From: Candidatus Omnitrophota bacterium
GTDB lineage: Bacteria > Omnitrophota > Gorgyraeia > Zapsychrales > Fredricksoniimonadaceae
Reading direction: 5' to 3'
DNA: 64,000 nucleotides
Assembly: GCA_044225175.1 (NCBI GenBank)
Contig: JBGAJA010000004.1
Coordinates: 81,631 to 145,630, forward strand
The notes below the pieces were generated by a model that saw only the letters and a list, made by a program, of their open reading frames with translations, was not told where the DNA came from and searched no databases. This document shows, piece by piece, positions 13,139 through 20,640 of the stretch (position 1 is the stretch's first letter; every line of letters begins with the position of its first letter). A program made the translations under genes and the position numbers.

Positions 13139-14884
13139 TTAATAAATGCCGGGAATGAATTTATAGGGAGTTTTTTGCTGATAGACTCTATATTCCGGAT
13201 TTGATGCAGACATAAACTGATCTTCTCTCATAGAGCGAATATAATAGGTTGCTAGGAATATATTACACATGCCTAACCACTGCATCGGTGTAGAAAAACC
13301 ATTAACGTACATCATAATAAACATAAAGGCTTCCAAAGTATAGGAAGGATGCCTGACTACACTATAAAAACCTGTTGTTCTCACTCCTTTATCCGTCATT
13401 ACCCCAAACATTGTTCCCAAGTTCCAAATTGAAAGTGTATAAAGTATATTCAAAAAAGCTTCTGCTATTAGAGTTAAATCTGACAAAGGACCTTGGGTAA
13501 ATATCGGTTCTAAACCAGTCAAAGATGGCGTCATTTGCCAAATGACTCCCCCTAATAAAGGAGAATAACAAACCGCATTAGTTGCCCATCCCATAAACGT
13601 AAAATCTAAGTTGCGAATACGCTTGCCCCAAAGATAACCAAAAACGGAATAACCATAACCTATTAAACATCCCACAATAGTAATGGACCACAACCAATAT
13701 CGCAGGACAGTGAATACCTCACGGAAGCTTAAAGAATGCTCAGAAGTCCCTCCTGGGGGCCATATAATCTGCGAAGCAGCCCTCAAATTCCCCTGTAAGA
13801 ACTCTAATAAGGTCCGACCAAAAGCATAAAAAATGATTAAATGAAGAGTCCAAAGCAATACATCACGCCAAACACCTTTAAACACTTTGGGATTTCTTTG
13901 TTTAAACTCAAGTAAATGCCAAAACCACCTAATAGGCGACATATTTTTCCAAATCAATAAACCAAGATATAAACCCCCTAACAATATATACAGTCCAATT
14001 TTATGTTTATATAAAGGAGAGCTTATTTCTGGCAGATGAATGGACCAATGAAACATAGAGTTACCCCAACGAACAATGATATTGGCTAAATATTCAAAAC
14101 AGCGAGGAAAAAAGTTCACGATAAACCATATAAAGGGGATGCCGAACATAATTTGCATGAAGAAATGAAACCTTTGAATATAACCTGCCTTCCCTTTTGA
14201 CCTTAACCAATTTCCCAATAAAAGCATGGGAGATTGATGACGAACAATAAAAAAATAACTGTATAAAACGATTGCAAGAATAAGAATCAATAATTCAAAA
14301 AGAAAAATAAATGGATTGGGTAAAATAACGACCTGAGTTGCAACCGTGTACTCACTGACTGATAAATTCTTAGCATTGTATCCCTCTTGGAGTTTAATCA
14401 AATTACTCCAAGATTCATCTTCTTGAAGATCTTGCAATTGGATACGTCCGACAACTTTTCGGTCTTTATAAAGACATAAAATATCTCCGGTATGAAATCC
14501 TAGCCGAGAACCTACAGATACTTTAATTCTAGGACCCTCTACCTCTAAAACACGCCCATGACGCCCCATAGGCCACTTATATTTCTCGGGACTATAAGAA
14601 GCTATGACTCGATTGCCATTTACAGATGAAATAGTTACATCTCCAATACTGAAATTTAACTCGGAAAAAAAACGGTAAATAGGAAAAGAGCTGCCTTCCT
14701 TAAGAAAGGAGCTATCTGTGACCGAAAAAGCCACGTGGGAAGAGTCAATCGTTTGATCTATGTTATAGTGTTTTTCAAATAAAAGATGCAGAGGGATTAA
14801 GAAGAGAATTGCTAAAACTAACCAAAGCGCTAATTCATAAAGAAAATGACAAAGATGATGAGGACTATAGGATGGATTAGACAT
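13139..14884 (-). CDS. Membrane protein with a C-terminal ICMT/PEMT-family methyltransferase domain
   Basis: 581 aa. N-terminal TM helix and soluble domain, then multiple TMs. The C-terminus has VVRHPSYTLE and ...EDQF...YRVYQQKTPYKFIPGIY, which match isoprenylcysteine carboxyl / phospholipid methyltransferase motifs. Confidence 0.55.
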   Translation of the reverse strand: MSNPSYSPHHLCHFLYELALWLVLAILFLIPLHLLFEKHYNIDQTIDSSHVAFSVTDSSFLKEGSSFPIYRFFSELNFSIGDVTISSVNGNRVIASYSPEKYKWPMGRHGRVLEVEGPRIKVSVGSRLGFHTGDILCLYKDRKVVGRIQLQDLQEDESWSNLIKLQEGYNAKNLSVSEYTVATQVVILPNPFIFLFELLILILAIVLYSYFFIVRHQSPMLLLGNWLRSKGKAGYIQRFHFFMQIMFGIPFIWFIVNFFPRCFEYLANIIVRWGNSMFHWSIHLPEISSPLYKHKIGLYILLGGLYLGLLIWKNMSPIRWFWHLLEFKQRNPKVFKGVWRDVLLWTLHLIIFYAFGRTLLEFLQGNLRAASQIIWPPGGTSEHSLSFREVFTVLRYWLWSITIVGCLIGYGYSVFGYLWGKRIRNLDFTFMGWATNAVCYSPLLGGVIWQMTPSLTGLEPIFTQGPLSDLTLIAEAFLNILYTLSIWNLGTMFGVMTDKGVRTTGFYSVVRHPSYTLEAFMFIMMYVNGFSTPMQWLGMCNIFLATYYIRSMREDQFMSASNPEYRVYQQKTPYKFIPGIY

Positions 14885-18526: not shown

Positions 18527-20640
18527 TTTTTTCTATATGGTGCCAAAGACTTCAGGTATTCAACTGGTGGATTATAGCCTAAAAGCTGGGCTTCTTCCAG
18601 ATAATGAATAGCGCCGGCAAAGTCTCTAGATTTAAAAGAAAGTATCGATAAATTTACAAATGCGCTTTGATGGTTTTTGTTGATGCCAACTGTTTTCAAA
18701 TAAGAAGCCATAGCCTCTGCGTCTTGTCCTAGCTGAGCATATACATTTCCCATATTGTAGTAAGCTTCTGCCTGCTGAGAATCTTTTTCTAAAGATTTTT
18801 CGTAATAATTTAAAGCTTCTTTCAACTCTCCTGCCGACTCAGATAGGTACCCCAAATAAAAATAAGGTTTGGCATCCCTAGGGTCTAAATTTATTGCTTT
18901 TTGATAAAACATTCTTGAGCGATCAAGATCAGAAAGCGCATTGTAAATAATCCCAAGGTTTAAATAACCTTGAGCATGCTTTGGATAAAAGTGCAGCAAT
19001 TGTTGGTAAACCATAAGAGCACTCTTTAAATCCCCCATTTGTTGGTAACGATTGCCCAGATTTAATAATGCCTTCTCATAACGAGGATTTAACTCCAAAG
19101 ACTTCTTATAAAAACGAATCGCTTCTTCAAAACCACCAACCTGCTCATACAAGAAACCCAAATTTAAATAGTCTGCCGCTGTGTATTTCTTTCTTTTCGA
19201 TATCTCTTCAAAATTTGAAAGAACTTCTTCTCTTTGCTCCTGATACAGTTTTTCTTGAGGATTCTTTTCAATACCATCGGAATAGGCTTTAATAATACGC
19301 GAATAAATCTCTTCATCTTCAGGATTGAATTTTAAAAGACGATTAAAATGATCTATCGCACTTCGAGGGTTATTCATCTTTTGAGATAGCACTCCCAAAC
19401 TAAAAAGAACATCTTTCGCCTTTGGATCTATCTCCAAAGCTTTGTTATATATCAACAGCGCTTCATTATTCTTTTCAATGTCCTCATAAACCTTTCCCAA
19501 ATGAAGATAGGAATCCATATAAGTACCATCTTTGCCAATAGCTTGTTTATAAAGGTCAATGACTTCCTCCATCTTCCTAAACTTCGACTTATCAATCGAG
19601 ATCTTATTCTCAGCAGCTCCTTGCGAAACCAATTCCACATATGCACGATAATCATTTTGCGACTGTTGGTATTCTGGAGTTTTCTCAATAGCTTCAGCCA
19701 AATAATTAAAAATAACTGGCCGGGGATTAAGTTTTAGCTGATGTTTCCACAAACTTACAGTATCTAACCAAACAAAACACTGGTAATAGGTTAAAATGGA
19801 CAAGCCCATCAAGAGCGTAGCTAAAGCAGCCATAAAGATCTGACCCAAGATTGCTTCCTGAGTCTTTAAAAACCGATACAAACGCCCTATCCAAAAAGCA
19901 GTGAATAAAGATACCATCACTAATGGTAAATAGAACAAATGATCTCTAAATAAGAAAGGTGGTGAAAGAAATATTGCTTTATTGTTAATGATTGCAAAAA
20001 CAAATGCAATCAGAAGAAATGGCCAGTATTTTATAAGATTGATTTGTTTTTTCTTTATCCAATCCATACAAATAATTGCCAATGGCAGACTAATCGCATG
20101 AGCTGAAGAAAGCATACTTAACAAGGCAAAAACTAAGCTTAATCTGAAGTTATCATTACGGTAATAAAGGATGGATAATAAATAAAACAAAACATACAGA
20201 AGCTCTTTTCTTTGCGATAGCCATCCTACCACCTCGACTTGTAAAGGATTTAACGCAAAAATTAAAGCTCCTCCAAATGCTTCAAAAAGACTCAGCTCAA
20301 AACTTATGGCCAATAAAAAAACTAAAATCACCACAGCGATATGCAGCAAAACATTGTCCAAATGAAACAGTAATGGGTTGAACCCCGCAATAAGACGCTC
20401 CAAAGAATAAGATAAAATGGGTATGGGAATATATTGATGATCGAATGAACGAGTTAGTATCGCCTTAATGTGCGCTCCATCAAAATTCTGCACATTGACA
20501 TTCTTAGTAATTAAAAGATCATCTTTATAGGAAAGAAAATGCGCTTTTAGAAGAGGACTGTAGCTTAAGAAAGTACACACAATTAATAATAAAATTAAGA
20601 GTGTTCTCCTTGAGGAAAATAACCGCGAGAATAAAGACAT
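18523..20640 (-). CDS. TMTC-like protein: N-terminal polytopic GT-C (PMT_2/DUF1736-like) domain fused to C-terminal TPR repeats
   Basis: 705 aa. The first ~300 aa contain ~9 TM helices, with YKDDLLITKN after TM1 and a ...LNPLQVEVVGWLSQRKELL motif resembling the DD and hP.h.E.V motifs of TMTC/PMT-like O-mannosyltransferases. The remaining ~400 aa are at least 9 TPR repeats. Confidence 0.55.
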   Translation of the reverse strand: MSLFSRLFSSRRTLLILLLIVCTFLSYSPLLKAHFLSYKDDLLITKNVNVQNFDGAHIKAILTRSFDHQYIPIPILSYSLERLIAGFNPLLFHLDNVLLHIAVVILVFLLAISFELSLFEAFGGALIFALNPLQVEVVGWLSQRKELLYVLFYLLSILYYRNDNFRLSLVFALLSMLSSAHAISLPLAIICMDWIKKKQINLIKYWPFLLIAFVFAIINNKAIFLSPPFLFRDHLFYLPLVMVSLFTAFWIGRLYRFLKTQEAILGQIFMAALATLLMGLSILTYYQCFVWLDTVSLWKHQLKLNPRPVIFNYLAEAIEKTPEYQQSQNDYRAYVELVSQGAAENKISIDKSKFRKMEEVIDLYKQAIGKDGTYMDSYLHLGKVYEDIEKNNEALLIYNKALEIDPKAKDVLFSLGVLSQKMNNPRSAIDHFNRLLKFNPEDEEIYSRIIKAYSDGIEKNPQEKLYQEQREEVLSNFEEISKRKKYTAADYLNLGFLYEQVGGFEEAIRFYKKSLELNPRYEKALLNLGNRYQQMGDLKSALMVYQQLLHFYPKHAQGYLNLGIIYNALSDLDRSRMFYQKAINLDPRDAKPYFYLGYLSESAGELKEALNYYEKSLEKDSQQAEAYYNMGNVYAQLGQDAEAMASYLKTVGINKNHQSAFVNLSILSFKSRDFAGAIHYLEEAQLLGYNPPVEYLKSLAPYRKK

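Follow-up and report, generated by a model that had tools for sequence, protein, structure and literature searches.

The window analysed here is a stretch of 64,000 nucleotides (nt; ~40% G+C) from a Candidatus Omnitrophota bacterium (assembly GCA_044225175.1, contig JBGAJA010000004.1, positions 81,631 to 145,630). At its centre of interest is a minus-strand operon in which the gene for a family 2 glycosyltransferase (GT2) of the GtrB type is followed immediately by the gene for a radical S-adenosylmethionine (SAM) enzyme. An earlier note, made from the sequence alone, had read the region as a polyprenyl-phosphate-dependent glycosylation locus arranged around a Ser/Thr-rich secreted protein, with a protein resembling the TMTC transferases as a member of the cluster. 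All of the genes that it listed are present where it placed them.

Organization of the locus

Reading along the minus strand, the gene for a TMTC-like protein of 705 amino acids (aa), which combines a glycosyltransferase C (GT-C) domain with tetratricopeptide repeats (TPR), occupies positions 18523–20640, and its stop codon is followed directly by a terminator-like palindromic hairpin with a T run (18501–18523). Next come tRNA-Arg(CCT) (18417–18494, minus strand; found by ARAGORN and, with 53.6 bits, by Rfam model RF00005), a sigma-70-like promoter match (TTGACA-16 nt-TATATT, 18352–18325 on the minus strand; 11/12, the best of the region) and, downstream of this promoter match, five tightly packed genes. 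The first of these encodes an 81-aa secreted protein (18041–18286) and the second a secreted Cys-rich protein of 368 aa with an (SSTG)n linker (16930–18036). They are followed by GT2 (15918–16907), by a 348-aa radical SAM enzyme with a SPASM/twitch-type C-terminal iron–sulfur domain (14885–15931) and, as the last gene, by a 581-aa polytopic protein resembling isoprenylcysteine and phosphatidylethanolamine methyltransferases (ICMT and PEMT; 13139–14884). Between the end of the (SSTG)n gene and the GT2 start lie 22 nt without a terminator, the end of GT2 and the beginning of the radical SAM gene share 14 nt, and the 581-aa gene begins at the base right after the radical SAM stop. The radical SAM gene probably starts at 15931 rather than at 16045; gene calling on a second assembly likewise gives a 348-aa product.

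Because the hairpin terminator, the tRNA gene and the promoter match intervene, the TMTC-like gene lies outside the GT2 transcription unit and in one of its own. At its other end, the five-gene unit converges with the gene for a 956-aa fusion of two GT-C-related polytopic modules (10239–13109, plus strand). The latter stands in a plus-strand run with metH, encoding B12-dependent methionine synthase (6514–10233), and, upstream of metH, the gene for a 511-aa GT-C candidate of the PMT_2 type (4974–6509). The Rfam match to the tRNA was recovered from a 351-nt stretch (cut-off 29), whereas a run over the whole window at gathering thresholds gave no match; this whole-window negative is unreliable as evidence for the absence of RNA genes.

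Conservation of the glycosyltransferase–radical SAM pair

We sampled 25 loci from species-representative genomes, together with two from assemblies, and searched them with every protein of the window. Of these proteins, GT2 alone is met again within 10 kb of the radical SAM gene, in 22 of the 23 genome loci that are uncut at that gene; two further loci are cut by a contig end, and two have distant Acidobacteriota radical SAM enzymes. In 16 of the 22, and in L003, for which the genes were taken from database gene calls, it lies directly upstream on the same strand, an estimated −32 to +62 nt away. The remaining arrangements differ: the gap reaches 417 nt in L025, one or two genes are inserted between the partners in L017, L020 and the assembly locus L004, the order is reversed in L014 and L027, and L012 carries the radical SAM gene without GT2. 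GT2 orthologues beside the radical SAM gene are 50–75% identical to the window protein, and the pair spans Omnitrophota and one Nitrospinae metagenome-assembled genome (MAG; L027), with several loci labelled Planctomycetales.

The rest of the gene set does not travel with the pair. The (SSTG)n, 81-aa, 581-aa, 511-aa and 956-aa proteins never occur within 10 kb of it in other loci, and even loci with an 81–84% identical radical SAM enzyme share no other synteny with the window. The 705-aa TMTC-like protein is likewise absent from that distance with one exception, L008, where a TMTC-like gene combining GT-C domain and TPR begins ~10 nt past the radical SAM gene (hhalign probability 100%, E 1.7e-47).

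Elsewhere, the pair is accompanied by one to four large polytopic proteins, some of them recognizable as GT-C enzymes: PMT/PMT_2 and DUF2079 matches occur in L006, a PMT_2 match in L027 and a weak YfhO match in L014. Polytopic neighbours in L013, L014, L017 and L024 reached GT-C probabilities of 77–86% in an hhalign sweep that used single sequences and is of low sensitivity. Genes for B12-binding radical SAM enzymes accompany the pair in eight loci, a class I methyltransferase (Methyltransf_23) directly follows the radical SAM gene in L003 and L018, and a Methyltransf_24 gene lies nearby in L008. The methyltransferase neighbours are of three unrelated types: ICMT/PEMT-like in the window, class I, and B12-radical SAM. 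Second, soluble GT2 genes also occur with the pair in other loci. Three loci (L013, L015 and L018) contain repeated pairs of a short soluble GT2 (~230–250 aa) and a ~740-aa unclassified polytopic protein (cluster C12), which may be further pairs of lipid-linked-donor synthase and transferase. A gene for UDP-galactopyranose mutase is found near the pair in L018 (12996–14123).

Judged by this comparison of gene neighbourhoods, the evolutionarily fixed unit is a two-gene module of a predicted GtrB-type synthase and a radical SAM enzyme. We came across no account of such a translationally coupled pair in the literature that we searched, and regard it as a novel element.

The GtrB-type glycosyltransferase

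GT2 matches Pfam Glycos_transf_2 over residues 12–182 (2.2e-25) and carries the acidic motifs of a GT-A, DXD-type enzyme (DD at 53–54 and DCD at 105–107). Among proteins of solved structure, its similarity to Synechocystis GtrB (sll0501; 5ekp) is strongest, with residues 4–324 aligned to chain positions 21–332 (E 4.9e-63). This alignment covers the whole protein, the C-terminal membrane hairpin included. The score against GtrB is 216 bits, compared with 99 bits for ArnC (3e-27), and an archaeal dolichylphosphate mannose synthase follows at 8e-10. In NCBIfam the top match is PgfS (NF047588; 1e-60, 205.5 bits), below its equivalog cut-off of 500, and the ArnC model PRK10714 is matched over the full length (2e-32, 112.4 bits), below its cut-off of 529. 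By homology, GT2 is of the GtrB type and not of the ArnC type. The acceptor of GtrB is polyprenyl phosphate.

The radical SAM enzyme

The radical SAM enzyme exceeds the Pfam cut-offs for both the radical SAM core (PF04055; 6.9e-12, 46.3 bits against 29.5) and the SPASM domain (PF13186; 1.3e-8, 35.4 bits against 21.5). It belongs to a tight family of 145 proteins, with at least 48% identity among the 120 listed, which come from Omnitrophota where a lineage is named. Throughout the family, the CX3CX2C cluster motif (C66/C70/C73) and six further Cys residues (C235, C269, C287, C288, C336 and C339) are invariant. The pattern of C269, C287/288 and C336-x2-C339 recalls the twitch domain of BtrN with its single auxiliary cluster, a resemblance that we offer as a lead only.

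When the family profile was compared with PDB sequences, the best matches were BtrN (2.9e-10), BlsE (8.5e-7) and GDGT-MAS (3.3e-6), with the peptide maturases SuiB (8e-5) and SkfB (1e-3) lower. BtrN and BlsE act on carbohydrate-type substrates and GDGT-MAS on a membrane lipid, as the PDB molecule names also indicate. The best solved relative of the family profile is BtrN, a twitch-type 2-deoxy-scyllo-inosamine dehydrogenase (4m7t), from which the present family differs in an extra N-terminal segment of ~55 residues and a conserved C-terminal AFKW. No PqqD or RRE domain was matched in Pfam, and no conserved small open reading frame (ORF) or peptide gene lies near the pair in the 25 loci. We also considered an anSME-like sulfatase maturase, the label of one JGI entry, and dropped it: anSME is absent from the PDB profile matches and no sulfatase gene was noticed near the pair. 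The radical SAM enzyme and the methyltransferase, neither of which the earlier note could place in a described pathway, now part company, the former as the conserved partner of GT2 and the latter as a replaceable accessory.

Membrane proteins with GT-C signatures

The 705-aa protein comprises, in an AlphaFold 2 (AF2) model, a GT-C fold over residues ~1–320, followed by a C-terminal TPR array (TPR_1, 7e-38; residues ~350–690). An acidic motif in the first extracytoplasmic loop, DD at residues 40–41 (D39/D40 of the family alignment), is nearly invariant among its homologues; the family consensus is FxxWDD and the window protein reads FLSYKDD. In this order of GT-C domain and TPR array it resembles eukaryotic TMTC1–4. 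It differs from these, from PMT and from actinobacterial Ppm1–Pmt in lacking DUF1736 and MIR domains and in its short transmembrane (TM) domain of ~320 aa. There is no match to DUF1736 (PF08409), which one of 63 homologues carries, nor to PMT, PMT_2 or MIR, although PMT_2 is matched in 7 and PMT in 2 of 45 homologues; a phmmer search of the N-terminal domain against the PDB returned chance matches only. Lacking a MIR domain, the protein is not a canonical PMT. The logic of TMTC-like O-mannosylation that the earlier note had proposed is unsupported.

The 956-aa protein has no direct Pfam match. It is a fusion, its homologues covering either residues ~13–420 or ~435–950. Relatives of the N-terminal module (n = 40) include 12 with PMT_2, 4 with PMT and 6 with DUF2079, and often contain PA14. 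Aligned by hhalign to the TMTC-like family, the C-terminal module gives a probability of 98.5% (E 1.8e-15, 374 columns) and the N-terminal module one of 93% (E 3e-7); profiles of both modules found nothing among PDB sequences. The 511-aa protein matches PMT_2 with 27.7 bits, just over the cut-off of 26.1, and has an HWDE loop motif. All three membrane proteins (511, 705 and 956 aa) carry GT-C signatures.

With a GtrB/Dpm1-type GT2 beside GT-C-fold transferases, the description of the region as a polyprenyl-phosphate-dependent glycosylation locus holds. The earlier note had itself named two ways in which that description could fall, an ArnC-type GT2 in a lipopolysaccharide modification locus and membrane proteins devoid of GT-C signatures, and neither is borne out.

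The methyltransferase-like protein

Pfam scores of the 581-aa protein fall short of the cut-offs for PEMT (20.4 bits against 25) and ICMT (17.3 bits against 24). Its full-length family contains 90 proteins at E ≤ 5e-61 (91 at E ≤ 0.001), about half of which match PF04191, and occurs in Omnitrophota, Fimbriimonadaceae, Patescibacteria-type lineages and at least one MAG labelled Rhodobacterales. In the family, the C-terminal motifs RHPSYTLE, RSEREDxFM and YKFIPGIY are strongly conserved. A phmmer search against the PDB gave chance matches only. The AF2 model, with a predicted local distance difference test (pLDDT) score of 87.5, consists of an N-terminal TM helix, a β-barrel (~38–187) and a helical membrane body. 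Foldseek matched the helical body to the methyltransferase Ma-ICMT (4a2n; probability 0.94, E 0.03, TM-score 0.44 on the target), and the barrel, which lies between TM1 and TM2, resembles the N-terminal barrel of F1/V1-ATPase α/β subunits and FlgT. An ICMT-like C-terminal region is supported, but not proven, by this model. Elsewhere in the window, a 220-aa polytopic ORF (52771–53433, plus strand) has classical ICMT/PEMT motifs (VRNPLY..., NEEGML..FG..Y..Y).

We looked for a conserved partner of the 581-aa family and found none, as the neighbours vary: L032 has a TMEM260_N GT-C gene and L034 one for a Wzy_C protein, and three further cases show unrelated neighbours. A PA14 protein comes after the 581-aa homologue in L031, as does a homologue of the 956-aa N-terminal module; taken with the convergent arrangement in the window, this suggests that the methyltransferase travels with the 956-aa GT-C protein rather than with GT2 and the radical SAM enzyme. 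In view of the missing fixed partner, we regard it as a lineage-specific, replaceable accessory.

Secreted proteins of the operon

The 368-aa protein has a signal peptide and 20 Cys residues, and consists of an N-terminal domain with 8 Cys, a linker of 31 (S/A)STG units and a C-terminus (residues 301–368; 16930–17136) in which two 6-Cys modules are separated by a (GTAT)n spacer. The linker that the earlier note had singled out is real, at ~130 aa instead of the ~150 aa it estimated. At the DNA level, Tandem Repeats Finder (TRF) reports a repeat of period 24 with 15 copies and 82% matches (17168–17526). The ORFs at 17133–17582 (minus strand, 149 aa) and 17189–17569 (plus strand, 126 aa) are artefacts of this 24-nt repeat, within which the other assembly of this organism (L001) is broken. 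The modules read C-x5-C-x6-CC-x4-C-x2-C and C-x5-C-x5-CC-x4-C-x4-C, an inhibitor-cystine-knot (knottin) pattern that is unusual in a bacterial protein. The protein has no Pfam match, and two NCBIfam FliH matches (20 bits against cut-offs of 192–293) were taken as chance.

The protein has no relative in loci L003–L035 and its Cys-rich N-terminal domain none in the metagenome scan, and none of the 25 loci has an (SSTG)n protein as a neighbour of the pair. Since it is absent from all other loci and from the metagenome scan, the conserved system is not built around the (SSTG)n protein, and the picture of a cluster organized around this acceptor is not supported. Because it is co-transcribed with GT2, the protein is nevertheless a reasonable local acceptor candidate. 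Glycosylation of its linker is possible by analogy with streptococci, in which GtrB and a GT-C enzyme (PgtC2) glycosylate Ser/Thr-rich disordered regions (PMC11092751). A polysaccharide or a different surface protein is just as conceivable as the acceptor.

The 81-aa protein carries the string TTYYPAPNGYY directly after its signal peptide. A search with a degenerate DNA pattern for TTYYPxPxGxY returned at least 120 metagenome stretches (loci L036–L155). All 131 translated matches listed have the box [ED]x[IL]T[IL]TTYYP[SA]PxGxY after a hydrophobic, signal-peptide-like stretch, and in the 80 complete ORFs listed, with a start codon 18–45 residues upstream, the box begins at a median of residue 32. 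The C-terminal parts of the box proteins listed vary from 71 to 627 aa, many with GNVGIGTTSPxxKL repeats, and tandem paralogues occur on several contigs. Neither the 81-aa protein nor six members examined had a Pfam or NCBIfam match, and the string was not found in the literature searched. On sequence grounds, the box seems to be an undescribed N-terminal feature shared by a large family of secreted proteins; the family is not linked to the GT2–radical SAM pair.

Surrounding genes

The metH gene is packed between two GT-C genes with gaps of 4–5 nt and adjoins an operon with two SAM-consuming enzymes, a placement that may be coincidence. Where close relatives of the window's genes bear a name, it is mostly Candidatus Omnitrophota or Omnitrophica. 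Two giant ORFs of 2594 and 3589 aa lie at 28309–36093 and 36587–47356 (minus strand); such giant ORFs are typical of Omnitrophota genomes (compare bioRxiv 10.64898/2026.06.07.730766).

A proposed tailoring pathway

The reading that we favour, though with as much reserve as confidence, is a Gtr-type periplasmic glycosylation system in which the polyprenyl-phosphate sugar donor is tailored by the radical SAM enzyme and a methyltransferase. On the cytoplasmic face of the membrane, GT2 would load polyprenyl (undecaprenyl) phosphate with a hexose taken from a nucleotide sugar; here the homology to GtrB is observed, and sugar and lipid are extrapolated from it. The translationally coupled radical SAM enzyme would then tailor the sugar, most likely while lipid-linked, by oxidation to a keto sugar (as BtrN does), decarboxylation, dehydration or epimerization. 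The fixed pairing and the closest solved relatives point to this step, and the translational coupling argues that the substrate is either the product of the synthase or its nucleotide-sugar substrate. Radical SAM enzymes work in the cytoplasm. A methyltransferase, here the 581-aa protein and elsewhere a class I or B12-radical SAM enzyme, would methylate the sugar, as the recurrence of non-orthologous methyltransferase neighbours suggests. The donor would finally be flipped across the membrane, where GT-C enzymes (705-aa, 956-aa and 511-aa) would transfer the modified sugar to extracytoplasmic acceptors. The most novel element of this scheme, the chemical tailoring of a monosaccharide on polyprenyl phosphate by a twitch/SPASM radical SAM enzyme ahead of its use by GT-C enzymes, would be an undescribed step in glycobiology; we advance it tentatively, and would sooner expect it to fail than to hold.

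Several observations weigh against this scheme. The BtrN similarity is restricted to the core domain (profile positions 52–171), which makes the proposed radical SAM chemistry a guess, and the substrate could be a nucleotide sugar, a lipid or a protein. Methyltransferases were noted as neighbours in less than half of the loci, and members of the 581-aa family are usually encoded at a distance from the pair. For most of the polytopic proteins beside the pair in other loci no family could be detected, and what ties the GT2 product to the three GT-C genes of the window is their proximity. No gene for a flippase of the GtrA, SMR, MATE or Wzx type was found near the locus, although one may be encoded elsewhere; the small polytopic ORFs of the window number three, at 33.4, 52.8 and 60.9 kb, none of them near the locus.

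Alternative explanations

The same genes could instead serve dedicated protein O-glycosylation, in which the lipid-linked sugar made by GT2 is passed by the TMTC-like GT-C protein, with or without the other GT-C proteins, to the Ser/Thr residues of the (SSTG)n linker. The tight spacing of the (SSTG)n and GT2 genes, the TPR tail of the 705-aa protein with its TMTC-like architecture, and the top, sub-cut-off match of GT2 to PgfS of Streptococcus mutans protein glycosylation all fit, as does the glucosylation of Ser/Thr-rich disordered regions by streptococcal GtrB and a GT-C enzyme (PMC11092751). Such a function assigns no role to the conserved partner, the radical SAM enzyme, however; no (SSTG)n relative occurs near other pairs or in the metagenome scan, and the TMTC-like gene is transcriptionally separate. 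We therefore consider it unlikely, if still deserving of attention. A quite unlikely alternative makes the product of the pair an end in itself, a membrane glycolipid with a remodelled head group and not a donor for GT-C enzymes. It has models in the HpnI/HpnK/HpnJ route to bacteriohopanetetrol cyclitol ether and in the way Cds turns glucose into calditol (PMC13459092), and it draws support from the lipid-modifying GDGT-MAS among the closest solved relatives and from the eight loci in which a B12-binding radical SAM enzyme, the domain type of HpnJ, lies by the pair. Against it stand the close, full-length homology of GT2 to GtrB, with polyprenyl phosphate as acceptor, and the recognizable GT-C genes that directly adjoin the pair in several genomes; neither the window nor the loci examined showed any hopanoid or tetraether genes.

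Many SPASM enzymes mature peptides, which raises the question of whether the radical SAM enzyme is a peptide or protein maturase, forming for instance thioethers or cross-links, that acts on the Cys-rich or the 81-aa protein, with GT2 glycosylating the product in the manner of RiPPs (peptides made on the ribosome and modified afterwards) or mycofactocin. Two secreted, Cys-containing proteins are indeed encoded upstream in the same operon, weak NCBIfam matches to MftC, PqqE and CefB were found, and SuiB and SkfB are among the PDB matches. Yet BtrN and BlsE outscore every peptide maturase, the enzyme has no RRE/PqqD domain, and the proteins encoded upstream have Sec signal peptides, in contrast to the cytoplasmic radical SAM enzyme. 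In the 25 other loci the pair is accompanied by neither of the two proteins and by no conserved small ORF. We give this idea little credence. The last candidate, an Arn-type locus for modification of lipid A or lipopolysaccharide with an ArnC-like GT2 and an ArnT-like GT-C enzyme, is very improbable. GT2 does match ArnC over its full length in both NCBIfam and the PDB, and the PMT_2 family includes ArnT-like enzymes, but the GtrB score is more than twice that for ArnC, the ArnC model is matched with 112 bits against its cut-off of 529, and a TPR-tailed GT-C protein is not an ArnT architecture. Homologues of ArnA, ArnB and ArnD, and small polytopic ORFs of the ArnE/F type, were not seen in the neighbourhood.

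Relation to known systems

The favoured reading of a tailored lipid-linked donor has a close counterpart in the Gtr systems of Shigella and Salmonella O-antigen modification, which comprise the flippase GtrA, the undecaprenyl-phosphate-glucose synthase GtrB and a serotype-specific GT-C enzyme, Gtr* (PMC11127046). The likeness extends from the genes, a GtrB homologue and GT-C proteins, to the logic of a lipid-monophosphate sugar donor used outside the cytoplasm. The present locus differs in the radical SAM gene fixed beside the GtrB homologue, in having several unrelated GT-C genes rather than one, in the methyltransferases, and in that no flippase gene of the GtrA or SMR type was detected in its vicinity. 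Streptococcal GtrB/PgtC2 and the S. mutans Pgf system (PgfS/PgfM1/PgfE/PgfM2; PMC11092751) share with it a PgfS-like GT2, GT-C enzymes and a Ser/Thr-rich secreted neighbour. The locus described here, by contrast, includes a radical SAM enzyme and a membrane methyltransferase; its Ser/Thr-rich protein is not conserved as a neighbour, and neither within the operon nor beside it was an epimerase gene identified.

Precedents exist for editing a sugar on its lipid. DprE1/DprE2 and the ORF13 epimerase edit polyprenyl-phosphate pentoses before GT-C transfer (PMC11127046), DprE1/DprE2 acting on decaprenyl-phosphate-ribose and the ORF13 homologue, which is linked to xylofuranose, being a candidate undecaprenyl-phosphate-ribofuranose epimerase. 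These systems are likewise systems in which the donor is modified before use by GT-C enzymes; they are flavin- or NAD-dependent, handle pentofuranoses and employ a phosphoribosyltransferase, whereas the present one has a radical SAM enzyme and a GT2 synthase. For HpnJ and Cds, it has been proposed that a radical SAM enzyme remodels a hexose already on a membrane lipid (PMC13459092). HpnI/HpnK/HpnJ and Cds thus share with our pair the sequence of a glycosyltransferase and then a radical SAM enzyme on a membrane-anchored sugar. Their carriers are a hopanoid and glycerol dialkyl glycerol tetraether (GDGT), respectively, and HpnJ binds B12, in contrast to the SPASM/twitch enzyme here.

Implications

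Periplasmic glycosylation from polyprenyl-phosphate sugars is well known, as are radical SAM enzymes that edit sugars. If the radical SAM enzyme acts on the lipid-linked donor, the superfamily would gain a new class of substrate. The pathway would then be an anaerobic radical counterpart of DprE1/DprE2 and would give strict anaerobes a new way of making unusual surface sugars. At ~2 kb the pair is small and portable, which makes the tailoring hypothesis amenable to heterologous expression. For the organisms themselves, the pathway would imply an unusual, often methylated surface sugar in Omnitrophota and at least one member of the Nitrospinae. Omnitrophota are uncultured nanobacteria that are thought to attach themselves to other cells or to prey on them, and for that reason their surface chemistry is of ecological interest.

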